Assembly: GCF_026210795.1 (NCBI RefSeq)
Contig: NC_089433.1
Coordinates: forward strand, 5,394,001 to 5,458,000
DNA: 64,000 nucleotides
Origin: Rhizophagus irregularis
Lineage: Eukaryota
Direction of reading: 5' to 3'
The position numbers and the translations under genes were made by a program. The first letter of the stretch is position 1. Each line of letters starts with the position of its first letter. Shown in pieces: positions 7,915 through 57,449 of the stretch. The notes under the pieces were generated by a model, which had not been told where the DNA came from, did no database searches, and saw nothing but the letters and a program-made list of their open reading frames with translations.

Positions 7915-9174
7915 ATGACATCTGAAGGTGCAACTTCGGTGCAAGTTGGTAAGCAAAAAAAAAAAATTGAAATTTCTAAAAGTCTTTTCATTTTATCCTT
8001 ATTCATTTCCATTTTCGAGTCTCATTTAAGATTAATTTAACAAACAAATAAACGGTCACATGTCAATATTACATAATAACCCTAACAAAAAACCTTCTTT
8101 AAATTATACATTAGCTGTCCGAATAAAACCGATTACCGACGAAGATTTAGAAAAATTACCTACAAGATTTCAACGTCAAGTAATTACTACTCCATCTCCA
8201 CATCAAATTGTTGTTGAAGGAGAGAAAAGACAATTTTATCATTTTGATCATGTATTTCCTCCTGAAACCACTCAAGAAGAAATTTATGAAAAATCTGTTG
8301 AAAATTTAGTGGATAAATTTTTAGAAGGTATAAAAATGGTTCATTGTTTCATATTGTGTGGCGCAGCCTATTTGCATTTTAAGTTTTAGATTTATTTATT
8401 TTTTTTTTTTTCCTCCATTAGGTTACAATGTGACAATATTAGCGTACGGTCAAACATCTTCAGGAAAGACCCATACAATGGGTACAGCCGATAATTCATC
8501 TATACCATATCATAATAAAGGAATAATTCCTCGTGCTATAGCAACTTTATTTCATACAATGAATACTTCTTCATTATATATGAATCGAAAATTTTCAATA
8601 AAAGTTTCATTTATAGAAATTTATAATGAAGACTTAATTGATTTACTTGGTGAAGGTGAGGGAGAATCTAGACCTCAAGTCATGATACGTGAAGATTCAA
8701 AAGGTCATATTTATTGGAGTGGTTTACAAGAACTTCAAGTTAATAGTGTTGATGATGTTATAGCGTATGTATAAAATTATTTATTTGATTACATTTAATT
8801 ATAATTTCTAAAATCATTGTATATTTGTAGTTATTTGGCAAGAGGTTCATTAAATAGACAAGTTGGTGCTACTGATATGAATGCGAAATCTTCTAGATCA
8901 CATGCCATTTTCTCTCTTACAATGTCACAACAAAAATTAGTAAATCATAATGGTTATAATAATTATTCAAATCCTGGTTCAAGACCAACAACTCCATCTT
9001 CAAAATTAATGGGTTCAAGAGCTAATTCAAGATTAGATTCAAGATTTGATGATGAAAGTGATTGGATCACCATAACTAGTAAATTTCATTTTGTAGATTT
9101 GGCTGGTAGTGAAAGGGTAAGTTATATTGTTCAAATTAAATTTAACCTATTACATCTTTCATTTAATACATCTC

Positions 9175-9208
<34 letters not shown>

Positions 9209-12200: not shown

Positions 12201-14246
12201 GAATTAGCAATTTCGAAAGAATCAGAAGTCGCAAACAAAAAAATGATTGCTGAACTTGAATCCGAATTAAGTAAATCTGAATCTATAATAACCTCTTTAC
12301 AATCTAATATTGAGATATCGAACTCCAATGAAAATGAAATAAATGAAACACTTGTTAAACTACGAAAGGAATTATCGGATACTAAATCAGAAATGGAATC
12401 ACAAAATGAATTATTAACAGAACTTGGAAATCAATTGACAACAACCGAAAAAGAACGTGAACAATATTCCGAACGTATTAATGAATTGTCAAGAATTATA
12501 GAAGAAAGAGAAAATCAATTGACAACAACTGAAAATGAACTTAATCAGTATTCTGAACGTATCAATGAACTATCAAGAATAATTGAAGCAAGAGAAAATC
12601 AATTGACAACAACCGAAAAAGAACGTGAACAATATTCCGAACGTATTAATGAACTATCAAGAATGATTGAAGAACGTGAAAATCAATTGACAACAACCGA
12701 AAAAGAACGTGATCAGTATTCCGAACGTATTAATGAACTATCAAGAATGATTGAAGAACGTGAAAATCAATTGACAACAACCGAAAAAGAACGTGATCAA
12801 TATTCTGAACGTGTTAACGATCAATCAAGAATGATGGATCAACAAAAGGAAGAAGTAGAAGCTTTTGAATTAACAATAACGAACTTGGAGAATGAACTCA
12901 AAGATACGAAGACTGCATCCCAAACTTATCAGGATAAAATGAAATCATTGGGAGAAAAACTTTCTGATTTAGAATCTCAACTTGATGAAGCAAAAGCTTC
13001 AAATGAAGAACATGTTCGAATGATCAATAACCTTGATTCTACATTAAAAGAATCTAACATTCATCTCAGTGAGAAAGAGGAATTGATATCTACCAAAGAC
13101 TCCCATATTAAAGAATTGGAAGCAACAATTAAAAAGATTAATGAGAAATTAGCTGATGCTGAATTGTCTAGAACTTCTGAATCTGAACATGTAAAATCAC
13201 TTCGAGACAAAATTGCGGAAATTGAAGCTAAATTAGAACAAAGCCCATCACCTGAAGATCTTGAATCAGCGCAACAACTTGCAGATAAACAAACTGAGCT
13301 CGTTAAAGAATTGGAAAGGAAGATTGATGAAATTAATAAAACTAATTCATCAGACATTGCTAATATGAATGAAAATATTGACATTTTAACCAAGGAATTA
13401 AATGAGATGAAATCCGCCGAAGAAGCGCAAAATTCTTTGATTCATGAATTAGAGTCTGAACTAAAAGAAAAAGAAGACAAGACGCTTGAATTAAAAGAAA
13501 TGTTAGATAAGGCCAACGCCCAACTTATCGAAAAGAATGAACATTTAAATGTCAAAGTTAATCTTGAACGACAAGTACAAAATTTACAAGAACAACTTAC
13601 TTCTATGGCCAAGGAATTAACGGACATTACTACAAAATATGAAGACGGCGAAGCTTTATCAAATGAATACAAAGTACAGATATCGAAATTAGAAAAAGCT
13701 CTTGAAGAAGCCAAAAAATTATCAAGTGATAAACAAAAAACTGATGAAACATTAGAAACTTCTGAATCCGAATTCAAGATTCCACTGAAGGATAATACAG
13801 CACAAGATAATCTTATTAAATCACTTCATGAAAAGATTATTGAACTAGAGAGCGCAGGAAAATCAAATTCCGATATAACTAAATATGAAATTGAAATTAA
13901 AGAATTAAACGAAAAAGTTTTCAAATTAGAGGAAATGGTTGCAGAAAAATCTAAATTAATAGAAAGTTTAAAGGAAAGTGGGACAGAAATAAAAGAATCA
14001 AGACAAAAATTAGAAGTATTACAAAAGGAAAAGAACGATCTTGTAAATGAAATTGAAACATTGAAAGTTAAAGCTGACCGATATGAACAATATAGAATTG
14101 AAGTAGAAGAAGAGAAAAAAGAAATTAATAGTATTTTAACAAAAGAAAGAGATGCCAGACATAAAGCTGAAGTTCAATTAACCAATCTTGAAAATCATAT
14201 TGAAGAACTTCAAGGTGCAAAGAGGAGTAAATTTATGTGTTTTTAA
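7915..14246 (+). CDS. Kinesin-4 family (KIF4/KIF21/KIF27-like) motor with a long coiled-coil tail; exons 7915-7948, 8115-8327, 8422-8764, 8831-9116, 9210-14246
   Basis: Motifs VQVAVRIKP, P-loop [13 protein letters not shown], switch I NAKSSRSH, switch [34 protein letters not shown] and [16 protein letters not shown] introns restore the frame. A heptad-rich tail of well over 1000 aa follows. Confidence 0.95.
9700..10020 (+). repeat. Coding tandem repeat SGIP(T/G)GRSTPT within kinesin
   Basis: About 8 imperfect repeats in the translated ORF. Confidence 0.9.
12428..12835 (+). repeat. Coding 84-bp (28-aa) tandem repeat within the kinesin coiled coil
   Basis: About 5 copies of [28 protein letters not shown]. 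Confidence 0.92.
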
Positions 14247-17427: not shown

Positions 17428-20262
17428 ATGACTCGTAAAAAGTTTCATCACCGATCAAGCCATTATCAACAAAGTAGATTAAACAATCGAAGAACTAATA
17501 ATATAACGCGTCCTCAGTCTCAATCTAGTTCAATCGATTCTTCTAGTTCTTTATCAGTAGCTATATCTGATGAAACTCCAAAAGAAATTCCCGGATATTA
17601 TTATGATCATGAAAAAAATAGATATTTTAAGATAATGCCAAATAAGGCAGTCGGGTCAAGTAATCCTTTTAGTGCCGATTCGATTACGAAAAGAGTCGAG
17701 GAGGTAAAATCATATTTAATTTATTTAATTACAATTAATTATTAAGAAACAATTATTTATATTGCGTCTTTTTTATTTAAAGAAAGCAAGAGAACTTGTA
17801 ATACCTAACCAAATTCCCAATGGAATATCGCTTCTTTTAGATCGAGAAATAAATTTTAACAAGCCTATTTATACATTCAAAAGGTAAGGATCGATTAAAG
17901 ATAAAATCTTGTGAATCCTTCTTATTCATAATAAGATGTTGATCTTTTTTTAGTGAAAACCGACAAATTTTAATAAAATCATTACGCCAAGTTGGTTCAA
18001 TTATACCAACCGCGATAGAACGTACACCTATAAAAGATTTTCAGGTATACGAATAATTACTTGTTGTATGAAAAAAGCGATATTAGAGGCGAGATTTAGT
18101 GAGAGATGATAAACCGATAATTGATTGGGAAAGGGAAACATAAACGCCGACGCTACGTCCTGTTTTATATTTATAAGATCTTTTAATGATTTATTATTAA
18201 TTAATTTAAAGATTCATCCATATTTTAACAAGATATTATATGGTGATTCATTTGGCAACATAAGGTTCGTAAACATGTGTGCACTTCATGATTGTCTTTG
18301 GACAATGATTTATTTTGTTTTTTTTTTTGCAGTTATCCTCGAATTTATTTATATTGCAAAAGTTTAATCTGATTATAATAATTATATTTTAAATAGCCAA
18401 ATGAAGATTAAATGTACTTCCAGTTCGTGTATGGAGATTTATAATGATCAAATGGCTAAATTAACCTCGGAGGTATTGTAAATTAACTTTTATATATTTT
18501 TAAGAATAATGTTAAGTAATGATGAATAGTCTTAAATGACTCATCGCATGATCAAAGATAATATTCTGTAAGGACTTGAAAAAATCATTAATGAAGAAAT
18601 TAATCCAATAATTGTTTTATAGATATCATCGGTGCGCTTGGATCGTACTGATCTATTAATGTAATATTATGCAATTTCATTTGGTTAATTATGATGAAAT
18701 AAAAAAAGAAAGAAAATAAAAAGGAAAGAAATTAAAGAAATTAGAATTTTTTAAAATTACTTACGTAATAATTTTCCCCCTTGAAAAAATTATGTAGGGC
18801 TACTACACTGGGTGATACGGTTGCCTCGGGTAATATGTATATATTAAAATTACCTTCGGGACCTTATCGTGACACGGGTAGGTCCTTTCCTCACTCAATA
18901 TTTACATGATGGATAATCAGGGATGGGGAAGACTCGCTCGGTTCCGAACCGATAATATTGAAAACCGAGTTGAGCAGAGTCAAATCGAAAACCGAGTATT
19001 ATGTATCAAAATTTATCAAAATCGATTTGGAACGATGTACCAAACCGAATGGAACGAACCGACTCAAATCGCTCAACCCGAACTTTTTCCACCCCTATCA
19101 GGATAATTAAATACCTCTAATCACTAATTACTCAATTACTCTTTATAAATATCCTCATAAGCACTAGATGTAAGATATACATATCGGAGTGGTTCAACAA
19201 TTTGGACTAGTTCGTTTTCCGAAATAGATTCTTCGATAGCATTAGGTGAATATATAATTAATCATTTTGATTATAAAAGAATTAAGAATGTTAAAATTTT
19301 TTTTTTTCCAAAAAATATACTAGGGTCATCACGAAAATTATCTGTTATTCAAGGATGGGAAGAGTATCCTTGTGTTAATAACTTTAAGACAAACAGTGAT
19401 GTTTTCGCGTTGGATTTTGATCGATATCAGGCAAGCGGACAAGCTTTTTATAATTGATAATAAGATAATAAGATAATTTTGGCCAGATTTACGTAATTAT
19501 TTATAATTTAAAAGATACCAAACTAATTTTTCAATTTCCTATAAAGCCCGACATAGTTTTTGCAGGTTGTAGAGACGGGAAGTTACGTATATATGATATT
19601 CGTTCTGATTGTTCCAATTCACATTATGGAATTGGTCCACCGATAAGTCAACAATCTCCAATTTGTCATATAAGACAGATTGGTGCATGGTATATTTTAT
19701 CAGATGGAATGGATGGATCCGTACGTATTTATTTTATTTATTGAAATTGATATTTGAAAATTTAAAATTTTATTATTTATATGACATATACAATACTTTA
19801 TATATAAATATATTTTAACGTAGCTTTCTTTATGGGATGTTCGAAATGAAAGAAGGAATTTTGATAAAACTTATGTTTACGAACCGGTTTTAGAATTTAA
19901 AGGAAATGTTAATTCAACCAATATTCAATATGGATTCGATGTTAATTTAAAAGAAGACATTGTAGCAATAGGTACATCTTTTTCTAAGCGCGTTGAATTA
20001 TTTTTGTCATCTTAATTAAATCTTATTTATTTATTTATTAAAAATAGCTGGCCAGGATAATAAAGTTAGATTTTTTTCCATAAATACCGGAAGAGCTATA
20101 AGATATCCAATTGGACCATTTAAAGATAAAGTATCTGCGTTAAGATTTTGTACATGGGATTCGGTAGGATTAAATCCTGAATTGGATGAAAGAGGCGAAG
20201 GTATTTGGATGGCCGCTGGAAAGGAATTTATATGGTGGAGTATTGGAAATAATGATATGTAG
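17428..20262 (+). CDS. DCAF4: DDB1/CUL4-associated factor 4 (WDR21)-like WD40 protein, multi-exon
   Basis: The N-terminal EIPGYYYDHEKNRYFKI motif is typical of DCAF4/WDR21. WD-type exons follow (SDVFALDF, VFAGCRDGKLRIYDIR, LSLWDVR, AGQDNKVRFFS). Stop TAG at 20260-20262. Confidence 0.8.
18918..19097. mobile_element. Degenerate hAT-like MITE inside a DCAF4 intron
   Basis: Ends CAGGGATGGGGAAGACTCG / CGAACTTTTTCCACCCCTA, internal AACCGA repeats, and GGATAAT near both flanks (imperfect TSD). Confidence 0.55.
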
Positions 20263-28520: not shown

Positions 28521-29861
28521 ATGGCAGAGCCTAAATTCAATGAGAAAAATGGAGTCGAACTTTCACCTGAACTTAAATCATCATTAGATTTAATACAGGA
28601 CGCAACATTGGTTCATGTTCATCATAATAATCATAATGAAATATTATCATTCTCACAACAATTAAATATAGCCTCACCTCATATGCCACCGCATCATTAT
28701 TTGGTAGATTCGGAAGATGAGATTGATGAGAGTGATGATGATGATGACTTAGATTATGAATTTGTAAATGATGATGATTATGATGATAGTGATATTGATG
28801 ATAACGATTTTAATGAAAAAATTAAATTGGAAGTTTTTAATAGACCTCCTTCAAGATTAGGTAGACCTTTATCAAATCCATATAAAAGACATAATAAAAG
28901 GAATGGTCCTTCAGTTGATAGAATAAAAATGGATAATGCTTTCTTAAGAAATCAAAATAGTAAATTAAGTCAAGAACTTGAACAATGTAGATTAACAATT
29001 CAAGCCCTTAAAAATATTGTTACTCAAAAAGATATCGCTTTACAAAATTCTCGTTCTGATTATCAAAAAGCAATTTTACAGGTTAGAGTATTAGAAACTT
29101 TGATTTTAAGTAAACATTCTAAAGATGGTAGTATTATCGTAAGAAGTGGTGGTATTGGTGGTAATAATTTACCTACAGTAACTTCTCTTTTACAAGAGAA
29201 AGAAATGATTTCTCTTTTTCAAGAGAAAGATTTAATATTACAAGAGAAATGTTTGGATAAACCGATTGATTCTATTGATTCTATTGATTCATTAGAATCT
29301 GATTCTCTTGAAAATACCATTATCACCTCACAAATTCCTCAAACAACTCAACCACCATCTTTAGAAACTCCTTCAGATTTTATAGGATCTTCGGATGATG
29401 ATGATGAAGATTTAATTCCACCTCCTCTTCCACCTAAAAGAGCGAATCGACATATTAGAAGATGGTCAATGGATTTTGGACCAAATAATCGTTTAGGTCA
29501 AGATGAAGAAGGATCAATACAAATGAATATGATTAATAGTAATATAACTCAAGCAACATCATCTGATGATAATACGATAATATCATCATCAGGTACCACA
29601 CCATCATCATCAACGCTAACTCCTATCAATAATGATCTACAACGCAACCTTCCTCGTATATTGAGACGTCGAACGGGTGATATAATTCAATCATTATCGT
29701 CATGTCGTTCTTCATCAACTAAAAATGGGTACGATCATTCACCACCAAGTACTCCTTTTAGTGATGATTCGAATGAAACGATCATAAATGAAAAATCGAC
29801 AAAGAAGAGAAAATCCGCTCAACAAAATTTATCGAAACTTCGTAAAATCTTTTTACGTTAA
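28521..29861 (+). CDS. Uncharacterised 446-aa single-exon protein: acidic tract, central coiled coil, disordered Ser/Thr-rich tail with PPPLPPKR
   Basis: Long uninterrupted ORF with coding-like composition inside extremely A/T-rich DNA. Heptad pattern at ~aa 135-200. Confidence 0.85.
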   Translation: MAEPKFNEKNGVELSPELKSSLDLIQDATLVHVHHNNHNEILSFSQQLNIASPHMPPHHYLVDSEDEIDESDDDDDLDYEFVNDDDYDDSDIDDNDFNEKIKLEVFNRPPSRLGRPLSNPYKRHNKRNGPSVDRIKMDNAFLRNQNSKLSQELEQCRLTIQALKNIVTQKDIALQNSRSDYQKAILQVRVLETLILSKHSKDGSIIVRSGGIGGNNLPTVTSLLQEKEMISLFQEKDLILQEKCLDKPIDSIDSIDSLESDSLENTIITSQIPQTTQPPSLETPSDFIGSSDDDDEDLIPPPLPPKRANRHIRRWSMDFGPNNRLGQDEEGSIQMNMINSNITQATSSDDNTIISSSGTTPSSSTLTPINNDLQRNLPRILRRRTGDIIQSLSSCRSSSTKNGYDHSPPSTPFSDDSNETIINEKSTKKRKSAQQNLSKLRKIFLR

Positions 29862-38296: not shown

Positions 38297-38416
38297 CACA
38301 GGTTGAAAAGTGAAAAATCAGGCATCAATCAGGCACCAATCGGTTACCAATCAGTCACCAATCAGCTACCTGATTGATGACCGATTGGTGCCTGATTTTT
38401 CACTTTTCGATCTGTA
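38297..38416. mobile_element. Short palindromic MITE; a related end lies at ~56590-56668
   Basis: ACAGGTTGAAAAGTGAAAAATCAGGCA / TGCCTGATTTTTCACTTTTCGATCTGT, with internal CCAATC(A/G)G repeats. Confidence 0.75.
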
Positions 38417-39193
38417 TTAATTATAAAATAATTATAGTAAAATAATATTATTATAAAGAATTTTTTAATAATTTAAAATTAATATATAGTATTATTTAAT
38501 AGTTAAATATAGTATTAAAGAAAAATTTTTACTTTTTATTAGTAAAATAAAAATTTAAAAATTTTTTTTTTTTAAGCAGTTATCATATTATTATTTGGAT
38601 AAAAAATGAAAAAAAATGAAAAATTAAAGTATAAAAAAAATGATAACAAAATTTTAAAAAAAAATAAATAGTAAAGTAATTGTTAAACATTTTTATACTT
38701 ATATAAAAAAAAAATTATATATATTTTCATTGAAAATAAAAGTATAATTAATTTAATAAGAAATTTTTAAATTATAAAAATAAATATTTCTTAATAATTT
38801 AAAATTAATATAGCCAAACCTTTATATTATACTTCCCAGCGAAATTAATTTAATTACGTCATTATACCTGACGTAATAAGCCGTAATAATTACGGTTTTA
38901 AATTTTAAAATGCCGATATGCCGTAATTAAATTAACCTGTCAAATTAATTACGGCAGTAAAATTTAAATTATATTAAAATAGGAAATAGATCAACTAATA
39001 AACACATGATTTAACATGAGTATATTAAATGAACGTAGTATATAATCATGTGTTATATTTCTTAAATTTTTTTTAAAATATTTCTTTGTCTTAAAAAATG
39101 CCAAATTTAAAATATTTTCTAACGCGTGTACCAATTAAACATTCTGATATAAAATAATACATTTTTTTATATATATTTTATACACTAATTATA

Positions 39194-41667
39194 ATGTCTA
39201 CTCAAGAAACAAATGGTGGAAGTTCAAGTGGCGTATTATTAAACACAAATAAAGAAAAAGGAAAACCAGGAAGAAAAAGAGGACCTGTTTGGATTCATTT
39301 TAATGATATTGGCACTAAAAAAGAAGGTCATATTGGTTGTAAATGCATGTATTGTGGCTGGACTCAAAACCGAGGAGAACCAGCCCAAATGCAAGCACAT
39401 TTAGCTTTATCCTGTTCAAAAGTTCCTTCTACAATTAAAATAGAATATTTACTTCTTATTAAACAAAATGCTGAAGAGCGAGTTACTAACTCTACTTCAA
39501 CTGTCTCAAAAAAAAGATGTGTTAATTTATCTCAAACAAGAATAGATAAATTTTATGAATCTGACCAGATTGATAGTACCAAACAAGTATTATGCGATAA
39601 AGCTGTTGCAAAATTCTTTGTTTGTTGTGGTGTGGCATTTCATTTAGTTTCTCATCCTTTTTTTATTGATATGGTTAAAAGTTTATGTAATGGATATGAG
39701 CCATCGTGTTCTACTACTTTATCCAATACACTTATGAACAACGAACTTACTAAAATAACTGTTGATCAGCAACTTACGTTAGATAAAGAATCAGATTTAA
39801 CATTAGGTAAAAAAATAAATTTTATTTTTAGATTTTTTAATTATTTAATAAATTTTGAATTTTTTAGGATTTGATGGCTGGACGAGCCCACGAGGTCAAT
39901 CATTATACGTTTTTATACTTATTACATGTGAACGAAAGGAAATTATACATAGTTTAAAAAATCTATCATCAGAATCTCATACAGCAAAATTTTTAGCTGA
40001 AAAAATTAATGAAGTAATTACAAATATTGGGCCTGAAAAATTTTCTGCAGTTGTTTCTGATCATGCTGCTGCTTGTGCATCTGCTAAACGAATCATTGCT
40101 GATACACATAAACATATTATTCCAATTAGATGTATTGCGCATCACATTAATCTCATTACAACTGATATTTGTAAAACTTCATTTGCCAAAGAGGTTATTG
40201 CGAAGTGTACAAAGTTAGTAAAATTTTTTAAAACATCACATCAAGCTGGTAAAAAGCTTAAAATGAGTATAATTGATGATTCAGTTAAAGGTGGAAATCT
40301 CAAAACTTATGTCAAAACTAGATGGACAACAGCTTGGGATTGTACGAATTCTATTTTACGTCTTGAAAATCAGTTAAAAAATGTAAGTTTATTAATTATT
40401 AATTATAAAATGAATTAAAACGTGAAATTTATTTTATTTTATTTATTTATTAGTTATTAAATGAATGCCCAGAAATATTGAATAATGAAATTAAAAGTTT
40501 ATTGCGAAGTAGATCATTTTTTAATGATGTTGATGCCGTTAATACTTTATTAGGCCCAGTCAAATCAGCAGTAAAGGCTCTTGAATTCAAATCAACTATG
40601 CTTGCTGATTGTTTTGTTGAATTAATCAAGTTATCACAAAGGATTAATTTCCTTCCACCAATATCAGATCAAAATTTTAAATCTACCTGTATTGAATTAT
40701 TTAATAAAAGATGGAAACAATTCGATTTTGATCTTTATATTTTAAGTTATATGCTTCATCCATACTACCGAGGTAAATTGTGAATTTTTTTTTGAATTAT
40801 TTATTTTTACACTAATCTTAATTAAATTATTATATTTATACTTTAGGTAAAGGTTTACATCCAATGGTCTTTCGTGATGTTTGTCTTAATGCAATGAAAT
40901 TGCTAAAAAATATGGGTGGTGGTGAAAATTCTTGTAGCGAATTAGTTGCTCAAATTCGCGCATTTACACAATATGAAAAACCTTATGATTTAGAGTATGT
41001 ATTAGGAATAGATAATGTTTTTTTATGGTGGCGATTATGCAATCCAGTACGTCCTGAAGAACATTATATTCAACAACTTGCTATGAAGATTTTATCAATT
41101 ACTCCACATAATGTAGGATGTGAACGTGTTTTCTCCATAATTGGTTGGATGGCTAATAAAAGGAGAACACGGTAAGTTAATATTTAATATTTAATATTAC
41201 TATATTAAAAAAAGTATATTATGCCTTTAATTTAGTTTTAATGTATTTAATTTAGATTAAATATTGAAAAACTTGAATCAATGGCGAAATTACATACGTA
41301 CTATATAACAAATGCAAAGTCTGAGCTCAAATTTGCATATAACACACTTTCCGAAGATCAATTTCAAAATGAAATTCAAGAAACATTATCTGATCCTTCT
41401 TTTTTTGATGATGATGATGATAATAGTGATTATGATGATGAAGATGAGGATTATGATCAAAATGAGGATGAGGGTGATGATACTGAGGCAGCTAATAATA
41501 ATAATTTGGAAATTTCACGATGGGTTAATATTATGGATAAAGAATTGCAAGAACTACTTCAAACAGAAGTTAAAGTAGTAATTGATATTTCTCCTCCACC
41601 ACCACTGGTAGATCACGGTTCTCAAGAATTTAATATGGAAGAAGTGTTAGATAGAATTCTCACTTAA
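39194..41667 (+). CDS. hAT transposase (BED zinc finger, RNase H-like DDE, C-terminal dimerisation domain); 5 exons
   Basis: Motifs VWIHF..CKCMYC..HLALSC (BED), FDGWT, VSDHAA, RCIAHHINL, KTRWTT and CERVFS. GT-AG introns at ~39807-39867, 40384-40453, 40773-40846 and 41172-41255. No in-exon stops seen. Confidence 0.92.
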
Positions 41668-42004
41668 AAACATAAAAATACATTGATAAATAAATTTTAA
41701 TATTTGTTTGGTATAATTACCCATAAATTTTTATAATGCTTAATTACGTCCAATATAAAATTGACCCGTAAACTATTTAAAATTATTTATTTATTGAAAT
41801 TAATCGCTAAACGCTAACACATTTTATACATTTTATTAAAAAAGAAAAAAATTTTTTTACGTCGAAAATATGATTCCGATGATTGGGTTGATCAGATGAC
41901 AGATCACAGATCCATAAATTCGATCTCATCGATCATTTTTTTTTTATTTTAATCTTTTTCTTTAAAAAAAACAATTTTAAAACCGATTTGTTTTAAAAAA
42001 AAAT

Positions 42005-42560
42005 GATATTTCGGTTTTCTTAAACCGATTTTTTTTTATTTTTAAAAATTTAAAATCATTTATTTATTTTTTATTTATTAATTATTTTTTTAAAAACAAT
42101 ATTTCGGTTTTTTAAACCGATTTCTTTTTATTTTTTTAATTTTTTTTTTTTAAAAAAAATAATATTTCGGTTTTCTTAAACCGATTTTTTTTCTTTTTTA
42201 AAATCATCATTTATTTATTTTTTATTTATTAATTATTTTTTTAAAAAACAATATTTCGGTTTTTTTAAACCGATTTTTTTTTATTTTTTTAATTTTTTTT
42301 TAAAAAAAACGATATTTCGGTTTTCTTAAACCAATTTTTTTTATTTTTTTTTATTTTTTTTCTTTAAAAAAATAGATATTTCGGACCAATTTAAAAAAAC
42401 TGATTTTTTTCTTTTTTAAAATTTAAAATTATTTATTTATTTTTTATTTATCAATTATTTTTAAAAAAAACAATATTTCGGTTTTCTTAAACCGATTTTT
42501 TTTCATTTTTTAAAATATATTTTTTAAAAAAAAACATTTCGGTTTCTTAACCGATTTTTT
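42005..42560 (+). repeat. Array of ~8 TCGGTTT-loop-AAACCGA hairpins in the hAT 3' region
   Basis: ATTTCGGTTTTCTTAAACCGATTTT recurs every ~60-100 bp, separated by T/A tracts. Confidence 0.85.
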
Positions 42561-42653
42561 TTTCTTTTGCTTTTTAATTATTTTTTTTTATTACAATTAT
42601 TTACTCTGAAGTCAGAATTGTAACTTTTTTAAGATCAAGAATACGGATCTTGG

Positions 42654-43038
42654 GTAAGTTGCCTTTTTTTTAAAAAAAAATTACTTTTAGAAACGTTATT
42701 AACGTTTCTTTTGTCTTATTTTTTAGGACTTATACTTTTTCGGGTTGAAATTTCAACTTGAAAGGTATGAGGTTTTTTTAAAATTTGCTTTTTTTTTAGA
42801 AATTATTAACGTTTATTTTATTATATTTTGTAGGGAAACATTTTCGGCTTCCTGGATTCTTCTAAGACATGAGTATGTTCTGTGTGGGGTTATTTTTATA
42901 ATTTCTTTAAAGAATCATATTAACGTTTTTTCTTTTAATTTCTCTGTAGGTTTTGGCTTCCTAATTCCTTCAGGATACAGGTATATGTGTGGGTGGGTAT
43001 TCTTTTAATATTAACATTTCTTTTTTTATTTTTTATAG
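42654..43038 (+). ncRNA. Putative spliced non-coding micro-exon cassette in the hAT (4 predicted introns)
   Basis: GT..ATTAAC..YAG units at 42654-42726, 42765-42833, 42873-42949 and 42981-43038, separating 31-39-nt exons. No ORF recognised. Confidence 0.5.
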
Positions 43039-44213
43039 GGTTTTCCATAAACTGCTTTTCCATTTGTAATTTTTGCGATCTAATCATTATTGTTACATAT
43101 ATTAATAATTACGTCATTTAATTTGCAGTCTGTCCTAACAAATAAATGAAAAATATCAATAGTGCTAAAACTAAAACTAAAAAAAAATAAAATAAAATAA
43201 TTAAGTATATTGTTTAAGAACTCTTTTTTATGTAATAAATAATAATTGAATTAATTGAATAATATAAACATATAATTTTTAAAAATCGGTTGTACAATTA
43301 GTTATACGTAATATAAATTATTTTAATAGCAATAAAGATAAATGGAATAATGGATCAATGGATCAAAGATTCAATTCTAATATAAAATCAATTCCGTCAG
43401 TACAAATTAATACGTCAGTACAAATTAATTACATCAGTACAAATAAATTACGTTACGTCAATATGCAATTCGGCATTGTGCCGTTATATTACGGCATTCA
43501 AAAATCAATTACGCTGGGAAGTATACTTTATATAACAATATGTTGAGACATATATAAAATTTTTAGAAAATATTATTATATCAAAGTTATACCAATATTT
43601 ATATGTCCTCACATATAGTGGAAAAATAGAATTTTATTATATCAAATTTTTAATAGTATATCGATATATCAAATATCAGTATATTGAAATTAAACTATAT
43701 ATAGTATTATTTAATAGTATTAAAGAAAATTTTTACTTTCTATTAGTAAAATAAAATTTTTTAAATTTTTTTTTGTTTTCATTAATTTTGGGAATTATAA
43801 AATACCATAGAACCAAAGAATTTAGGTAATTTATGACTTACAATGAAAGTTCTTTTCAAATGGCTATCGAGATGTTGATATTACCTGAATATCGTATATC
43901 AGAAGTGCGATTAGTCATTAATAGAAGTAAAAAAAAGGTGATGGTAAATTCCAGTTGTCATATTATCATTTGGATAAAAATCAAAAAAAAAACACAAGAA
44001 ATTAAAGTATAAAAATAAAAGTGATAACAAAATTTTTTAAAAAAACAATAATAAGCAATTATCAAATATTTTTATACTTATATAAAAAGAAATTATATAT
44101 ATTTTCATTAAAAACAAAAAGTATAGTTATTTAATAGAATAATTATAGCAAAATAATATTATTAGAATCTCTTAATATAAATATAATATTTTTCATTTTA
44201 GAAATTAACTAAG

Positions 44214-45423
44214 TATAACCGCAGGTGATATCACCTAACCAAAATCACATGATCAATATAATATGATATTATTTTTAATAGTTAATCAAAATTAGACTAT
44301 TTATACTAATTCCCACATTCCCTTCTTTTTTGCTCTTCTTTTCTTTTACTATATTATATATACAATGGAGTATAAAAACCCTAAATAAAAATAATCCTAT
44401 GGTTGAAAGTGATAAAGATGATTCTATATTAGATAAGTGACGAAGGTGAATATCATGATACTAAATTACTAATGTAGAAATTACACTATGTCCTGGTATG
44501 CAATTTCAGTTGTAGGAAGAATTAGAAACCCACCTTAATATTTACGCTCTTCAAGAAGGTTTTTCTTACAAAAAAAATAAGGCTTGAATATTACATGAGT
44601 CTAGTGGTACAGCCATCCCGATTTTTTGAGGAGATTAATAATATTTGCAAAAGAATTTTTTAACATTACATATACTTTCAACAGTTCAAAACCAAATGAA
44701 ACAAATCTTTTTTTTTGATGCTTCAAGAATATATAGAACAGGTATGGAGTAATTGATTATTTAATGACATGGTATTAAGATTAGGGTGTGGGATTAGGGT
44801 TAAGATTAGGGTGTGAGATTTAGTTAGGGTTAGGATTAGGGTGTGGAATTAGGGTTAGGGTGTGGATTAGGGTTAGGATTAGGACTTGGAATTAGGGTTA
44901 GGCTTAGCATGTTTATTGTTTCTAACTTTATTTATTTCTTTTTTTTTAATTTTTGATTGATGGTTCAACTTGCAAAGATGGATTCCGGGAATATGATTAT
45001 AAAATTAAACTAATTCTACTCAAAAATTTGATTGAAAATGTGCTATTAGATTCTATTGTAGAAATTTGGCAAATTAAGCCTGAATTATTACCAACACATT
45101 CACAGTTCATCATTTATTTATACCAGCGTGAACGTCCGCCAAAACTGTATCAAAGTGAAGGAGAACCACAAAAAATAATTAAAGAAAACAAAGAAAATCA
45201 AAGTGTTAATATAATGATAGCACTCTGAAAAAATTACAAAACTGTAGAGGTTTGTCATAATTTACGAAATTGCAAGGTTCTTAGCGATAAAAATTGATGT
45301 TATATTATTTGTAGATAATTAATTTATTTTAGTAGATGTTATAAATAAATTTTATTGTATATGCCATATCAATAATAATTCAATCATGTGACCATACTGG
45401 AGGTGATATCACCTGCGGTTATA
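44214..45423 (+). mobile_element. Internally deleted TIR element with FAR1/MULE transposase remnants
   Basis: Perfect 23-bp inverted ends TATAACCGCAGGTGATATCACCT. Remnants PGMQF..EELETHLNIYALQEGFSYKK (FAR1-like), IVEIWQIK, RERPPK and HNLRNC. Confidence 0.75.
44775..44907 (+). repeat. Interstitial telomere-like TTAGGG variant repeat
   Basis: Roughly ten TTAGGG/TTAGGA units interspersed with TGTGGA. Confidence 0.85.
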
Positions 45424-47964: not shown

Positions 47965-50104
47965 AGTTGACTACATGGTGAGAAGCTTTTCTAGGAGCGC
48001 TTATTTTATGGAAAAAATATCGAGTGATGATCAATTATAACGGTGGCTTAGCTATTTTATTTAACTAGCCCCCCAAAAAAGCACTGGTCGGCCGGCATTA
48101 TGCGGAATTATGTACTGTCACGTGAGCAGTGCGTGGTGACAAATAATGCACCCCTTTTTTGTGTGCCAGGTTCATAGCTTAGCAAGCCACGCACCACAAA
48201 ACTTATTTTGGCCAGAATTAAAATGAATTAAAATTAAAGTATATAGTCCACGCGGTACCACAAAACTTATTTTGGCCAGAATTAAAGGGAATTAAAATTA
48301 AAGTGTATATATCGTATCAATAATGCAAAATTTTAAGAATATAATTAAACGAATTATTAAAAATACTAAACTTTTAAGAAATTAAATGAATAATAAGTAT
48401 CTTTTTTAATAAATTTAAAGTGTATATATATATAATAAATATGGACAAAGTAAAAATATTGCAAATTTATTTAATAAAGCACAAGTTAAAATTAAAAATA
48501 TAATTTAATTCAACTGATTTCTTAGAATATTTTTGCTTAAATTGTGTTCTTTTTTACCAGTTTTCTTTTTTTTCTGACTTGGAATTATTTATGAATCTAA
48601 ATTTTCTTTTCTGTCAGCTTGCTTATTAGTGCCACCTGATTTATTTTTTTACACCGCTTAACAGACTCTATCTGAACACGAATTATTGCACCACTCTTAA
48701 TGCGTGTTAGATCTACATTGTGGTTAATATCATAAAGGAAGGAACACAAGTGAGGAATTGATTTTGATTTGATGTATGGTATCGTTCAGCAAATTTGTCT
48801 AATGCAGTACGAAACTGTGGACCACAATTTTCATAATCTACTTTAATTTCTTCCAAGAAATCGCCCAAAGTAGATGTGTTGATTTCATTCTCTTTTATTT
48901 TATTATTTTCATTTAATTCTCTCAGAAATTAGTTGTCAGTTATAGAATTCAATTGATAGCTGCAGTTCAGAATTGTCAATTGTTTATCATTTTCGTTATG
49001 CGATTCTATCTGCAGAGTTTGAACTTGTGAGAAAGGACCTGCATGTAGTGAAGCATAAAAAGAACCATTTTTTGCAATGTAGCTTAAAATAATAATAAAT
49101 TATGTGAGTGATAATTATAATAAATATCAAATTTAATGGAATCTGTTTGCCAAGTGCGATATAGAAATAGATCATATGATCATTAAGAGTTAATGATGGT
49201 AGAAAATTAAAATTTGAAATGTGAAATTTTACAGAAACAGCTTGCACGGTGTGCCTATCATCCTAACATGACAGCTACAAGTTCCAATAGCACTGTTAAA
49301 CAACATAAAAACAACCCATTTTTTTTGTACTTGGAACTAAATATTCATTTTTGAAAGTTGTTGGTTAAATGGAATTACTATTCACTTTTTCCCAATCTGG
49401 ACAAAAGAACCTTTTTGTGATCGTATGATCCAGGTGTTTATATGCAATTCTGAGCAGTTTAAATTTATAAAAATGGTCTATGTTATCTGTAACAAAATGA
49501 AAGACTTGAACTGGATTAAAAGCTTGAGTTCTAGAAAAAATGATATTCTTAAGTATGCTAAAGCTACATTCAATATAATTATTTGTATTGTTTCCACGTA
49601 TCAGTAGCATCAAACGAAAAGATAAAGCCCATAATTGGCGCTGTTTCCATAAAAGATCAAAGTGTTTTTGTAATTGAGAATATAAGTGAAAAAAATTATG
49701 TTTAAAGTCTTGATAATGGTTATCCATCTCTGGCTCTGTTAATACGTAAAGAATTTTTTTCATCATCTTTATAATAGGTATTTGATCATTTTTATTTATA
49801 TGATGTTTTGAATCGTACAACCATCTTCAAAATACCTGGAGTATATGGAAAGTACATAAAAGACGTATTCCCGTGGCCAACAGAGCTTTAGAGCGTTTCT
49901 TTCTGCGCTTGAATCATCTGTAAAAAATACTATAAGACCAACTTGAGAACTACATTTATAGAAGGCATATGAAGGTAAAATCATCTTTAGCAAATTTAGC
50001 TAATCGTAAAAAAGAACAATAATTAGAAATTTGTAATTACCGAGAAAAAAATCATAGGAAAATTACCGCTTTTTCCAATATTATTTCTGATTTATCTGAT
50101 GTAA

Positions 50105-53100
50105 CACTGGTCAAAATCAAAACTTTCGACCGTTAAGAGCTTTCGGTATAATTTTTGCTGATTGGTCATATGATTCATCACATTTTTTGACCAATGGCAA
50201 AAATCAGTAAAATCAATCACAAATCAACTAATACTGATTGTTAAACGAAAACTCATTCAGTCTTTTGGTGAAAAATCAACTTATACCGATTGTTATACAA
50301 AAAATTGCTCTTTTAAGATCATTCAGTAAAATTATACTGATTGGTCATATAAATCAACACAATTTTGCCAAATTTGCCAAACGGTAAAAATCTGGCAATA
50401 ATTCGGCAAATCAGTTGATAAATGACTGAAAAAATCAGATGATCCAGATCGATATTTTACAGGTCTTTTTAAAATAAACTTTTTTAAACTTTTTAAACTT
50501 TTCGCCTCTCTCTTTCATTCGTAAATGTACACATTAAATTCGGTAACTTTTTATTAAATCAAAAAAGTTTCGAAACTTTCTTTAAAAAAACATTTTTTAC
50601 ATTAAAAAACGTTTTTTTTTATACTTTTAGTGAAGAAAATCGGTTCCAGCGTGGATACCGATATTACAGGTAAAGTTTTGAAAAATTTTGAAACTTTCTT
50701 TTAAAAAAAAAATGTTTTTAGCTAAAAACGTTTCTTTTTTATATTTTTTGCAGAAAATCGGTTCCGATGTGGATACCGTTTTCCTAAGTAAAGTTTCGAA
50801 AAAAATTTTTAAAACTTTCTTTAATAAAACATTTTAATAAAACGTTTTTTTATTTTTGTATAGGAAATCGGCTCCAGCGTGGACGCCGATATTCCAGTTA
50901 AGTTTCAAAACTAAATGGTTTAAAACTTCTTTAAAACGTTTTTTAATAAAAAAAACATTTTTTTTTTATTTTTTTTATATAGGAATTCAGCTCCAGCGTG
51001 GATGCCAATATTCCAGTTAAGTTTCGAAACTAAAGTTTCAAAACTTTAATAAAACGTTTTTTAATAAAAAAAATGTTTTTTTTTTATTTTTTTTATATAG
51101 GAATTAAGCTCCAATGTAGACGCTGATATTCCAGTTAAGTTTTGAAACTAAAGTTTCGAAATTTTAATAAAACGTTTTTTAATAAAAAACGTTTTTTTTT
51201 ATTAATTTTTGTAGAAAATCGGTTCTGGCGTGGATACCGATATTCCAGGTAAGTTTCAAAACAAATGTTTTGAAACTTCTTTAAAAACATTTTTTTTATA
51301 TTAAAAAACATTATTTTTTTATTTTATTGTATAGGAATTTGGCTCCAGCGTGGACGCCGATATTTCAGATAAGTTTCAAACCATTTTTGAAACTTCTTTA
51401 AAAAAAAAACGTTTTTTAACGTTTTTTTTTATACTTAATTGTAAAGCTATCAGTTCCAGTGTGGATACTGAACCCCAAAGATAAGTTTTGAAAAATTTTG
51501 AAACTATAATAATAAACGTTAAAAATTAACATTTTTTTTTTATTTTTTGTAGGGATATCAGTTCCGGTGTGGATACCAAAATCCCAAAGGTAAGTTTCGA
51601 AAAAAAATTTTAAAACTCTTTTTAATAAAACGTTTTTAATAAAACATTTTTTTTTATGTTTGTATAGGAAATCGGCTCCTACTTGAATACCAAATTCCAA
51701 AGGTAAGTTTCAAAACAAAGTTTTGAAACTTTAAAACATTTTTTAATATTAAAAACGTTTTTTTTTTACTTTTGTATAGGAATTCGGCTTCAGCGTGGAT
51801 GCCGATATTCCAGTTAAGTTTCATTTTCAAAACTTCTTTGAAAAAAACGTTTTTTAACGTTTTTTTTTTAATATTATTGTAGAGTTACCGTAAAGTTTCA
51901 AATTTTTAAAACTTTACGAAACTTAATAAAAAAAACGTTTAAAGTAACGTTTTTTTATTATTTTTTATTATTTTTTTTTGTAGAGAATTGGCTCTGATTT
52001 GGATACCAATTCTACAAGTAAAGTTTCGAAGTTTTTTTTTCGAAACTTAATAAAAAACGTTTATTTTAAACGTTTTTTTTATTTTTTTGTAGGAAATCGG
52101 CTTCAATATGGACGCTAAAATCTCTTCGGTCAGGTTTCAGGATGAGTTCAACATGGAATTTCGAAGGTAGAACTTCAAAATATTTCATTAATTTATCTAA
52201 TAAACATTACTAACATTCCTTTGTATTTAGAAAATTTTTTTTTTTTTATTTGAACGAAACGTTTGCTAACGTTTTCGTTCTTTTTTTTTGTAGATTCAAG
52301 ACGCCCTCAAAGTATAATAGGGGTTTAGGGCATGGAATGGTTGATGGTAAGTTTTGAAGTTGGTTTAATTTTGAAACTTTAAAAGAAATGATTTACTAAT
52401 CATTTCTTTCTTCTTTTTGTAGGCTTTCACTTCAGGCTGATGGATCGGGTAAGTTTCGAACTATTTTGAAACTTTTCAAAATTTTTTTTTTATAAAAGAA
52501 TCGGTTTGCTAACCGTTTCTTCTTTTTTTTTGTAGATTTCCCCCTTCGACTTTTTATTGGATGGGTAAGTTTTTCGAAACTTCATTTTTTATTATTATTA
52601 AAGAAACGAACTAACCGTTTCTTTTTTTTTGTAGGTTTCCATTAACGAATTGGAGGTAAGTTTCGAGTATCGAAACTTTAACTTTTTTTATCGAAGAAAC
52701 ATTAAACTAATTGTTTCTTCTTTTTTTTTGTAGGTTTCCCACCCTTCGGACTTTATTGGATGGACAGGTAAGTTTCGAATTTTTTCAAAACTTTATTTTT
52801 TTTATTGAAGAAACGTTAAACTAATTGTTTCTTCTTTTTTTTTGTAGATTTTCTTCTTCGGACTTTATTGGATGGGTGGATAAGTTTCGAATTTTTCGAA
52901 ACTTTATTTTTAATTATTATTAAAGAAACGAACTAACCGTTTCTTTACTTTTTTTTTGTAGGTTTCCCCTTCAGATTTTATTAGATCGGGTAAGTTTCTT
53001 TTGAAACTTTAACTTTTTTTATTTAAAAAATAGGTTACTAACCATTTTCTCTTTTTTTTTGTAGGTTTTCTACGGATTTTTATCAGGTTAGGTGAGGATG

Positions 53101-54943
53101 ATGGGTGGATAATGGATGGTGGATGGTGTATATAGATGATAGATAGCTATATATTAATTTAATATGTAATTTTTAATACATATGGGCCGATCCTTGGAAT
53201 CTAATTTTTTACACAAAAATAATTTTATTAAAGCAAATATAAATTATCATTTATATAAGAATAATAAATTTATACTAGGTAATGCAAAAAAAACTAATTA
53301 ATTATATAATTTTTAATTTTTTTTTAATATATGATATCATTAAAATTTAAAAGATCAAATATAACTCTCATGACAAAATCATTGATAATTCTTCGTAGAA
53401 ATAAGCTATACAAATAAATTTACATTCATTTGAAAGAGAAAATCGAGATCTATCTAATGAATCTAAAATCAAGTGAATTGAATCACTAGTTGTTCAGTAA
53501 TCACGTTCAGTATATTTATTGAATTTTATCTAAATTTGATCATTAATTACTTCACATGTAGTGATTCAATTTGAATGATCTTTGCTCCCTAAGGTGATGC
53601 CAACTTTTATCTTTAAAATAAATTTAAAATAATTCGTTTAATATATGTAGAATCATCAATTATATTATTAATATAAAATTTTATAAGTTTGATAAAATCT
53701 GATATAAAAAAATTTATTAAATACCTGTAGATGCAAGCTACACGAATGAAATTATATTCATTTGAAAGAGAAAATTGAGGTCTATCTAATAAGCCTAAAA
53801 TCGAATGAATTGAATCACTGGATTGTGAATAATTACGTCTAATATATTTATTTTTAATTTTTAAATTTGATTTGACTTTGATCGTTAATTACGCCTCATC
53901 CAGTGATCCAATTTTCCTGATCTTTGATTCTTACGATAGAGCAAATTCTCAGCTTTCAAATGAATGTAAAATGATGACGTTAGCATATCTCCAGGAATAA
54001 TAATGCACGATTTTGTCACCTGCATAAAGTCCGATCTGAAAATTTTATTTCTTACCAAAAAATGCTTTCATAAGAGAATCCCAAATTCTTTTACTTTATT
54101 TAAAAGATTTTATTTGCCATTTAAGGATTTTAGTAGAATAAATCTAATAAAATAATTTTAAAAGATAAAAAACAAATATATAATTAGTTATTTTGAAAAA
54201 AAAAGAATATCTTATTATTCATTTTACAACTATTTTACATCATAATTATTTTTTATTTGCATGTATTTTTTACAAAGAAAAAACAATAAATTAAAGCTAA
54301 AAATTATGAAAAAATATGTCTTATCTATGTATATAAAATATTAAGTTTTTTCTTTTACTTACCACTTAAAAATAACTGCTATATTTGCTTATAAACTTTT
54401 TTGTCATATTTAATAAAAGTGAATAGAAAAATGATGGAAAAGTGATGGGCAGTGATGGGAAAAAAGAAGTGGTTATTACCGTTATTTTTGAATATTGATT
54501 AAAAAAATTTTTTTATTTTTTATTAAATCTGAGTTACGTAAATATGTAACACATATTTAATTTAGATTTGTGTAATGTTAATCTTACTAAAATATTAAAT
54601 TTTTATAAAAATCTTAATTTAGACTAATTCCAAAAATCGGCACATATGAAAATGAATTAATAAAATTTAATTAATAAATTATTATAAAATTAAATCAGTA
54701 ATCAGTTAAATGTACAAAAATCGGTAATAAATTATTAGGTTTATTAACAATCGTCAATTTGATTTTACCGATTTGTTGCCAATTTTTACTGATCAATTTG
54801 TTGACAAATGGCAGGCGTTATGGTGCAAATCATCTATATAATTAGTTGCCGATTTTTTGGTACTGATCGGCTAAGGTAAGACTGAATTTCGTCCAACATT
54901 CAGCAATTTAAAATTTTGCCAAAATGAACTATTCTGACCAGTG
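50105..54943. mobile_element. Non-autonomous CACTA/CMC-type element inserted in the MULE transposase
   Basis: TIR CACTGGTCA(A/G)AAT. 3-bp TSD TAA at 50102-50104 and 54944-54946. Subterminal (C/T)GATT repeats. Removing the element rejoins the transposase motif LITSD. Confidence 0.9.
50543..53064 (+). ncRNA. Putative multi-intron structured ncRNA: ~22 tandem micro-exon/intron modules
   Basis: Period ~100-120 bp: polyT-(G/A)TAG | 21-37-nt exon | GTAAGTTTCG. CTAAC/CTAAT branch sites occur in the distal 8-9 introns. Exons fold into covarying hairpins. No long ORF. Confidence 0.65.
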
Positions 54944-57449
54944 TAATTAACATCCAAGTGGCAGCACACCTGCTGCATAACTTGTATATAAAAGTGTAAT
55001 TGAGGTTCAAACGATGCAGATGCATCAACATAACAAATTTCTCCAACTTGCAGAATTTTTTCATGAATGCGGCACATTAAACTGGATACAATGCATAAGA
55101 TGAACGCTTTTTCAGTTTATATATCATATTCCTGTATAATCGCTTTACCATTACCCAAATTGTTATAATGATCAATTACTTCTACTAAGTGTTCAAACAT
55201 TTTCTCACCATTACAACTGCCAAGCATATTATTATGGTATTTATGGAAAAGTCTAACAATATAACCATAGTCTGACTTGATAGCTCGATCTGCAAGCATT
55301 TCAAGCAACTCCTGATTACTTTCTGCAGTAGTGTGAAACCTATCTTCATAGAAATATATTGTCAAAGCAGACGAATGCCCATCTTCAAATAACTCTAAAA
55401 ACCTTTCATGTACCTCTTCCTTAACATGCTAAAAACTTAATGATTCTGCCAAATTTATTACATGATTGTGCGTAAATCTAATATTGATTTCCAGCAGATT
55501 GCTATGCGACTCAATATGCCAATTTTCTAGCTGAATTTTAATACTTGCATTGCAGTGAACATTTCTTATTCAAGTTGACTGCTGAAACTTTATTTCACGA
55601 TTACCTTATTTTTTTTTAACATCATTTCCATGTATACAATGTCGTTTTAAAAGCACCTTTTTTCCTTTTACTCTGTATCCCTTTGTTTGAGACATCGTGA
55701 TTTTAGAATGACTGATATTAATAAATGCTTTTAGTTCAAATTGTGGGATCGAAAAATTCTCAAAAGTTTGATAAGATAGTAGTTAATTAAACTTTTTAAT
55801 TAAGTATGAGTAACCTGATGAAAGAACTAATTTCAAAAGATCGGGTAATGAACTCTAAACTAAAATCTGTAAGAATTAAGAAATAACAATTATGACAAGT
55901 TTAGCAACAATGGTGACTTTGACAAAATAAAATATTTTAACAAATCGGAATAGTAAAATTTTTGCAATATATTAATATATTAATATTTAATGAAAATAAT
56001 TTACAATAGTACAAATTTGATAAATTAAAATATAAAATATAGTTATATAATACTAATAAAACTTTGTAATTTGTACTTTAACCTCGTCTATACTATTATC
56101 GTTCTCTATAATTTTAGACAGCAAAAAAAAAACAAAACTATTTGGTTTTATTTAACTAAATAAAACGTTAAATAAAAATATTTATTATAGTCTATGTGGT
56201 TTTATATTTCGCTTCAAAAAATGGTAAATAAGATGGGAAGAAAAAGAGATGGTTAACACGACACAAATAAAATCAATAAAATCTGTGTACAATGCGAAAT
56301 TAGGTCACGTAAATAAGTAAATTATTAGAAGAGTGGTGGCGCGTGACGTATGGTGCAGCTGTGCTACACATTTTTGCCATGAACCTGGCACACAAAAAAG
56401 GGATGCAAAATATATTATTTATATTTTATTTAATTTTTTATTAACTATTAATTCTAAAAATGCGATTTTACTATCATTAGATTCGTCTTGTTGAGGCGAT
56501 TCCAATGAGCTATATTTCATCCTTTTCTGATCATTGGATCAAAAGTTAGCAAACTGCCTGATTGGTGATAGTATTTGGCGAAAATGCCAATCAGTTACCA
56601 ATCGGTCACCAATCAGCTAACAGATTGGTGACTGATTGATACCTGATTTTTCACTTTTTGACCTGTGTTTATTCAGTAGATATAGTTGGTTGAAAAATAT
56701 TTTCACAGATTTCTGACTGCATATTATTTCAGTAATTTCTTGCTGGATCATCCACAATTGTATTTCAGCTTCCAGTACTATAATATATAATAGTTCAGCC
56801 TAGTAAAGTTAAATTTAATTAGAAAAGTGTAAGGAAAAGCATAATGCTATATTTAATAAGATTGGTATATATTAGTATTACCTGTCGTAAATAGTTGTAA
56901 GTTTAAAAATTAAGTAATTATAATGGTTGTAAATTAGAATTATTATTTTTTAGTTAATCACAATAATATTTTACATTTTTCATTTAACTATTATTTATTA
57001 TCAATAATTCTTGTAAATATTATTGAAATTTACCAATTATATCTTGATATACTTATCCTAAATGTTTATATTTCTATAAATATAAATATGTTTCTTTATC
57101 TTTTAAGTTTTAAATATATAAGATATTTTCATTTAGAATTATAAATATGTGGTTTTCTTTGATAATTTATTCTTAATCTTTAGTATAATTTTTATTTTAA
57201 ATTTTGTTATAATTTTCATTTTTAATTTTTAATTTTATAGTAATTTTATTTTTAATTTTTAGTATAATTTTTATCTTGATTTTTAATATAATTTTAATTT
57301 AATTTTTAATTTAATAGTAATTTTATTTTTGATTTTTGGTAGATTTTACTATAACTTGCATTTTTGATTTTTAGTGATAATTTTCATTATTAATTTTTAA
57401 TTTTAATTTTAATGTAATTTTTATTTTGAATAATATTTATAATGTTTAA

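Follow-up and report, generated by a model that had tools for sequence, protein, structure and literature searches.

The window, a 64-kb stretch of AT-rich eukaryotic DNA from Rhizophagus irregularis, contains a tandem array at 50543-53064 with approximately 22 units repeated at a period near 115 nt. The species assignment agrees with a 446-aa protein encoded at 28521-29858, which matches R. irregularis records at 100% identity. The units have a common order of parts, with a donor, a hairpin, a T-rich spacer, a second hairpin, a U-tract and a YAG, and then a short, GC-richer exon; the exons are 21-50 nt long and the intron-like units 70-90 nt. The GT donor, branch motif, pyrimidine tract and YAG follow the order and spacing of U2-type introns; in this copy the 5′ half has decayed. 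We are highly confident in this anatomy as regards its boundaries, units and signals. The array and its surroundings are composed as follows.

48508..50104, minus strand: 3′ half of a MULE/SWIM transposase pseudogene, from residue 308
50102..50104, no strand: left target-site duplication TAA
50105..50117, plus strand: left terminal inverted repeat CACTGGTC, of EnSpm/CACTA type
50118..50542, plus strand: subterminal repeats and probable promoter/first exon (from sequence; read depth 0-1.7 at 49900-50504)
50543..52092, plus strand: 5′ half of the array, 14 units with decayed splice signals (from sequence and folding)
52093..52166, plus strand: 74-nt exon-like segment
52167..52294, plus strand: intron-like unit with two branch hairpins, including one at 52252; non-consensus donor GTAGAA at 52167
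52347..52422, plus strand: intron-like unit with donor hairpin and branch hairpin (52382), z -4.0
52449..52535, plus strand: intron-like unit, z -3.0
52565..52634, plus strand: intron-like unit with branch hairpin at 52601, z -1.6
52656..52733, plus strand: intron-like unit with branch hairpin at 52693, z -3.6
52768..52847, plus strand: intron-like unit, z -2.3
52880..52961, plus strand: intron-like unit with dead donor ATAAGT, z -4.9
52990..53064, plus strand: last intron-like unit, z -1.4
53065..53200, plus strand: likely terminal exon (from sequence; read depth 1-5 per direction)
54931..54943, minus strand: right terminal inverted repeat GACCAGTG, ending at 54943
54944..54946, no strand: right target-site duplication TAA
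54947..55875, minus strand: 5′ half of the MULE/SWIM transposase pseudogene, to residue 305 of P0014

A GT is present in six of the seven units at 52347-53064, and at the mutated donor position of the 52880 unit reads from other copies carry a G. In the 5′ half, a GT in register is absent from 6 of the 13 folded units and CTAAC from all 13, and after nine of the 13 comes a 34-nt exon that forms an imperfect inverted repeat in its own right. The four branch hairpins quoted in an earlier, sequence-only reading of this DNA (at 52252, 52382, 52601 and 52693) are all present at those positions, the first with one bulged T, and there are others at 52807 and 52921. The donor and branch hairpins have a GAAAC/GTTTC core in common. 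A search of 50000-54000 against Rfam gave nothing above the gathering threshold and two weak chance matches.

The carrier transposon and other features of the window

The alignment of R. irregularis MULE/SWIM proteins stops at residue 305 on one side of the array-bearing segment and resumes at residue 308 on the other, and with a TAA on both sides this identifies the 4.8-kb element (50105-54943) as cleanly inserted, with a duplication of 3 bp. PMC12730594 gives CAC..GTG terminal inverted repeats and 3-bp duplications as the criteria for EnSpm elements; both are found here, in agreement with the EnSpm/CACTA (CMC) type. The same left terminus occurs with different flanks in two of the metagenome loci described below (L004 and L029), and the last 113 nt of the element are 77% identical to an end in a third (L023). 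There is no transposase ORF inside 50105-54943, and no substantial coding ORF between the array and the right terminus. The array is thus the cargo of a non-autonomous EnSpm/CACTA-type DNA transposon. CMC elements are described as recently active and expressed in R. irregularis in parts of bioRxiv 10.1101/2021.03.30.436303 and PMC11075540. L004 (1943-3203, minus strand) and L029 also contain, within the same CACTG element and convergent to the array, a multi-exon gene belonging to no Pfam family, possibly encoding an accessory or transposase-related protein.

A related module is carried by a second superfamily, as seen in a hAT element elsewhere in the window:

38828..43525, plus strand: hAT element with TATACTTCCCAGCG termini, 8-bp duplication CTTTATAT and an open four-intron transposase gene (DUF659)
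41986..42580, plus strand: hAT cargo, eight tandem branch-like hairpins, each followed by poly-T, with neither AG nor donor
42654..43038, plus strand: hAT cargo, four intron-like units with 31-39-nt exons

This is apparently an intact autonomous element, with a perfect duplication and an open transposase, and it is a candidate for recent activity. Its cargo lies behind the transposase gene, the eight hairpins coming first and the short-exon introns (42654-42726, 42765-42833, 42873-42949 and 42981-43038) after them; only the first of these introns has a full branch hairpin (42689), and the folding energies of all four are approximate, the ends being off by 1-2 nt. The eight poly-T hairpins are reminiscent of a branch-point-protein sponge.

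We note several other features of the window. A Crinkler-domain kinase gene at 1735-4000 appears frameshifted, and a kinesin at 7916-14246 has a long coiled coil, 12-16-residue SGIPG repeats and 28-residue tandem repeats. A small repeat insertion (18879-19170) lengthens an intron of the WD40-like gene, and degenerate TTAGGG telomere-like repeats lie at an internal position (44775-44907). Two copies of a small inverted-repeat element (38298-38424 and 56550-56673) have AATCAG/CTGATT repeats resembling sequence upstream of the array in L016.

Structure and signals of the intron-like units

We compared the seven units at 52347-53064 with 32 ordinary introns from six genes of the window (4 kinesin, 9 exchanger-like, 10 WD40-like, 4 hAT transposase, 4 Crinkler-kinase and 1 DDE), those of the kinesin and hAT genes being validated by their open reading frames, those of the exchanger-like and WD40-like genes partly so, and the Crinkler and DDE introns being called by eye. 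Relative to dinucleotide shuffles the median folding z is -3.0 for the array units and +0.37 for the ordinary introns, a difference whose significance is inflated because the array units are tandem relatives. Values below -2 are found for the whole intron in 5/7 array units versus 1/32 ordinary introns, for the 5′ end in 6/7 versus 0/32, and for the 3′ end in 6/7 versus 2/32. The array units are far more stable and the host introns do not fold equally often, which bears out the proposal of a distinct structured intron-like class whose pattern the ordinary introns of the window lack.

Two hairpins are predicted to form in the cell, one covering donor positions +3 to +10 and a separate one surrounding the branch motif. 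The sequence-only reading had the donor locked in a hairpin and the branch motif at the apex of a stem, and both claims need qualifying. Positions +3 to +8 are indeed paired (probability 0.95, compared with 0.59 in the controls) but the GT itself is largely free (median 0.16); and the branch hairpins exist, but the motif is often not wholly apical, with the branch A predicted to be paired in 97 of 121 hairpins across the family. Pairing touches the final 8 nt before the AG in just 13 of these 121. The donor hairpin pattern has six matches in the window where shuffles give 0.01, one of the six being the minus-strand mirror of a palindrome, and a scan of the window for a branch-motif hairpin followed by a U-tract and YAG yields ten matches, of which seven are in the array, one is in the hAT element and two have no intron context.

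Could the introns yield mirtron-like products, as the sequence-only reading had proposed, or be other Dicer substrates? Hairpins are present, but they are two separate and short stems, those around the branch site having a median of nine pairs and a maximum of 18, the predicted folds leave the intron ends unpaired with each other, and Rfam matches above threshold are absent. We rejected the mirtron assignment, since a mirtron is a single long hairpin spanning the whole intron and here the 3′ end is free; that these introns serve as Dicer substrates of any kind is most improbable.

A different possibility is that the hairpins help splicing, compacting the mini-introns and preventing mispairing with neighboring repeats, so that efficient splicing yields a short micro-exon RNA and any retained-intron reads come from precursors or dead copies. 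The splice signals of the array are stronger than ordinary ones, with CTAAC in 4/7 units versus 1/32 control introns, and the GT and the final U-tract and AG are predicted to be free, both of which fit this explanation. It fits less well that pairing is predicted at donor positions +3 to +8 and, in most cases, at the branch A, and that yeast introns are depleted of stems at donor and branch sites, as reported in sections of PMC12350175.

Relatives in metagenome contigs and the history of the stems

Scanning metagenome contigs for the donor hairpin gave 124 stretches, of which 123 were taken further. Fifty loci were kept, being GC-poor with repeated donors or with a donor plus a U-rich acceptor; nine without an array were dropped by eye, and the remaining stretches are apparently isolated chance matches. 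The 50 loci, from soil, form 17 clusters together with the window, with similar arrays and diverged exons. Their composition, a flanking kinase and shared transposon ends suggest an origin in arbuscular mycorrhizal (AM) fungi. Most are too short to show element ends, although the right terminus is present in L023 and an end of hAT type in L076. The branch-hairpin pattern has no matches in viral contigs and none in prokaryote contigs.

Units were called on splice signals alone in the 50 loci and the window, giving 216 with a branch motif and AG, 210 of them on the strand of the donor. After de-duplication there are 152 units in 15 clusters; the branch-to-AG spacing is 20-27 nt in 135 of these, and 111 form a hairpin at least as stable as -4 kcal/mol. 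The median intron length in the family is 81 nt. Among the 72 donors not used as scan seeds, 40 are locked and 32 unlocked.

Some loci have other arrangements. L012 and L076 hold head-to-head arrays (L012 1-1300, L076 1-3000) that point away from a shared center, which in L012 is a long palindrome, and such pairs could allow divergent transcription. Runs of repeats with 3′ splice sites only, each an approximately 40-nt exon with a U-tract and TAG and no donor, are interleaved with full introns in L023 (1-370 and 1100-1600), L060 (1-1600) and L030 (800-1300), and in L046 the loop of one donor hairpin holds a coding-like insert of about 150 nt (approximately 350-500) that is bordered by a short duplication; coordinates in these four loci are in array-strand orientation.

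The exons (n = 82) have a median length of 34 nt and 47% GC, and a G at the first position in 66 and at the last in 64. Their lengths modulo 3 are distributed 32/30/20, with no frame preference, and they are therefore likely to be non-coding. This bears on the suggestion that, in autonomous copies, the array supplies a protein-coding gene with its spliced leader or micro-exons, for which one can cite the longer exons that follow the array in L008, L060 and L077 and the 89-codon open stretch left when the 3′ exons are joined. We rejected a coding micro-exon reading on the grounds of the missing frame bias and the absence of a substantial downstream ORF as far as the right terminus; in addition, the neighboring gene in L004 and L029 is convergent, and among ten ORFs flanking the loci a kinase is the sole clear Pfam match. 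A coding role for the array is very unlikely.

The branch stems co-vary between subfamilies. The arms of a unit pair better with each other than with those of units in other clusters when the two are exchanged (-6.3 vs -4.3 kcal/mol), an advantage seen in 106/152 units and 13/15 clusters. RNAalifold gave no consensus pairs on an ungapped branch-anchored alignment because the loop length varies, and we used a register-aware permutation and double-change tests in its place. Perfect 7-bp stems occur in 20 of 69 branch-anchored units versus 6.6 when permuted (maximum 14 in 2000), and these 20 comprise 12 different sequences, so that the claim that the stems differ in sequence and keep pairing among family copies is upheld. 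Double changes at the modal register fill 56 cells versus 37.8, a value reached in 0/500 shuffles, with relatedness uncorrected; slid controls score similar covariation (0.193-0.219 vs 0.199). The closest comparison within the family, between the 52347-52422 unit and its homolog in L086 (83% identical), shows a loop change and one wobble with no double compensation. Template-switch repair could also hold palindromes matched.

The decay of CpG dinucleotides within stems gives a less definite picture. Among standing states, single decays that make a mismatch are favored over those that keep a wobble (13 vs 3). In aligned events the ratios are 17:6 in stems versus 43:41 elsewhere at an 80% identity cut-off (p 0.06) and 69:51 versus 181:134 at a 70% cut-off (p 1.0), and a wobble excess first seen in stems (27:8) was gone after de-duplication and removal of the seeds. 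Decay that keeps a G-U pair is thus not clearly favored.

An alternative explanation for these patterns operates at the DNA level: a captured intron-exon unit was amplified within transposons, splicing is irrelevant today, and the inverted repeats are protein-binding motifs or are maintained by template-switch repair. Consistent with this, the same GAAAC/GTTTC core recurs in both hairpins, the wobble bias is not clear, no spliced read was seen, and many units are missing the donor or branch site; tandem repeats inside CACTA elements are also known. A DNA motif, however, needs no particular order of splice signals, and in 15 clusters the donor, branch site, U-tract and AG keep to one strand with their order and spacing preserved even though the exons have diverged; these exons moreover have a G at both edges. 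Because signal order and spacing are conserved across diverged subfamilies, recognition by the spliceosome is likely, and we regard a purely neutral origin as unlikely. The sequence-only reading overlooked the transposon cargo, the exons without frame bias and the related modules in more than one superfamily.

RNA reads, a possible function and known systems

We examined three polyA runs with the same species label, representing at most two samples from one study. Depth per direction is 6-45 over 52441-53045 and 0-1.7 over 49900-50504, a contrast that speaks against simple carry-over of DNA; in a fourth run, belonging to a different study, most of the array has almost no coverage. The majority of reads match at 88-99% and therefore derive from other copies. 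Reads cross the exon-intron borders of the array, and at their loose ends one intron type appears next to different exons. Of 37 joints in the array across the three polyA runs, 15 are listed and none of these is a GT-AG joint, and the hAT module has no joint in two polyA runs, where the depth is 20-22 in its last intron and 13-20 in its last exon. Both read strands are about equally represented and the libraries look unstranded, so an antisense source is possible; the strand antisense to the array is A-rich, and oligo-dT could catch such RNA. The reads suggest that introns are retained in related copies. They are consistent with slowed splicing, subject to a strong ascertainment bias, as fully spliced reads of diverged 21-37-nt exons are unplaceable and read placement favors unspliced RNA, with no ordinary-intron control.

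This placement bias works in favor of hairpins that help splicing. Against them, no joint is seen in the hAT module even into its long last exon at a depth of 13-20, although the intron concerned is weakly structured, and with the pairing of the splice signals noted above we think it rather unlikely that the hairpins promote splicing. Retained-intron reads also fit a further explanation, in which stalled splicing feeds RNA interference and the element is a source of siRNAs that limit its own copy number. Stalled splicing of transposons reportedly feeds RNA interference in Cryptococcus, and CpG decay is plentiful in the arrays. It is also in keeping with this that 49% of the small-RNA loci of R. 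irregularis are TE-derived, a figure from the accessible part of bioRxiv 10.1101/2021.03.30.436303. It is nonetheless hard to explain why several superfamilies should keep a costly self-silencing signal, and such a role seems quite improbable.

The variants with branch hairpins only (hAT) and with 3′ sites only (L023, L030 and L060) suggest that the display of splice signals is of more importance than any defined product, and we therefore favor a factor-attracting, slow-splicing transposon module. The bases covered by the stems are those that U1/U6 and U2 need. The module would be transcribed in the sense direction from the subterminal region; hairpins over the donor and branch site would slow the splicing of the intron-like units as the array signals attract splicing factors and engage the spliceosome; and the slowly spliced RNA would stay intron-containing and loaded with these factors, which may shield the element from RNA-guided silencing. 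The proposed benefit is by analogy with C. elegans, where introns are a barrier to nuclear RNAi according to PMC5554785, and the transposable elements of R. irregularis are methylated and yield small RNAs, as stated in part of bioRxiv 10.1101/2021.03.30.436303. To this mechanism as a whole, a transposon-borne non-coding module of slowly spliced introns that shields its carrier from silencing, we assign a probability of roughly one in three. Its broader form is a doubtful conjecture: that AM-fungal DNA transposons of unrelated superfamilies share an interchangeable, protein-free module whose hairpin-caged splice signals bait and hold the spliceosome, blocking RNAi and methylation.

The feature is apparently undescribed so far, the carrier itself being an ordinary EnSpm-type element. 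Literature on AM fungi, introns, introners, CMC transposons and silencing yielded no description of such arrays, with most subscription papers, Repbase, TE libraries and bioRxiv supplements lying outside this coverage. By term search the arrays are unmentioned in the accessible portions of PMC11075540, bioRxiv 10.1101/2022.10.19.511543, bioRxiv 10.1101/2021.03.30.436303, PMC12730594 and PMC13465315, and the names Rhizophagus, Mucoromycota and Glomer do not occur in the main text of PMC9860276. Repeats make up about half of the R. irregularis genome, two-thirds of them unclassified (from part of PMC11075540), and the array provides a recognizable signature for a portion of this unclassified fraction; it may also account for spurious multi-exon 'hypothetical' gene models. 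The introns form a natural series with strong signals under structure, the reverse of the situation in yeast, and the compensated variants are suited to tests of U1/U2 gating. If the module does protect its element it would constitute an RNA-based counter-defense, for which the TET/JBP proteins carried by other fungal transposons (described in part of PMC12730594) offer a parallel.

Several known systems share some of these properties. Non-autonomous CMC transposons have the same 5′-CAC..GTG-3′ termini, 3-bp duplication and subterminal repeats, but here the internal sequence consists of exons and introns in an ordered array, bearing spliceosomal signals and paired hairpins. The introner-like elements (ILEs) of Dothideomycetes are likewise multi-copy, with canonical signals, a stable fold, compensatory changes and rapid decay, but they insert singly in unrelated genes and are longer than normal introns, as set out in sections of PMC3609843. 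The array introns have the stable structure and compensatory changes of introners; they are, however, of normal length, in tandem, inside transposons and next to likely non-coding exons, they are absent from the 32 ordinary introns, and within the window they do not occur as single insertions at unrelated gene positions. The sister stwintrons and cropped sister introns of Hypoxylaceae are also repeated U2 introns with internal symmetry, but theirs takes the form of 45-55-nt terminal inverted repeats joining donor and acceptor (part of PMC8469720); we rejected a sister stwintron assignment, as the array units have no such terminal repeats or nested intron, and their predicted folds contain two local hairpins with unpaired ends. 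Zipper and downstream stems in yeast also shape splicing, but they are situated between the splice signals and are scarce at the signals themselves, in the accessible text of PMC12350175, whereas the array stems overlap the signals. Closest to the proposed function are Aquarius/EMB-4 in C. elegans, where RNA loaded with splicing factors resists silencing (PMC5554785), and Gomafu, whose tandem branch motifs bind splicing factor 1 (PMC3116199). Both of these are host features, whereas the device described here would be borne by a transposon.
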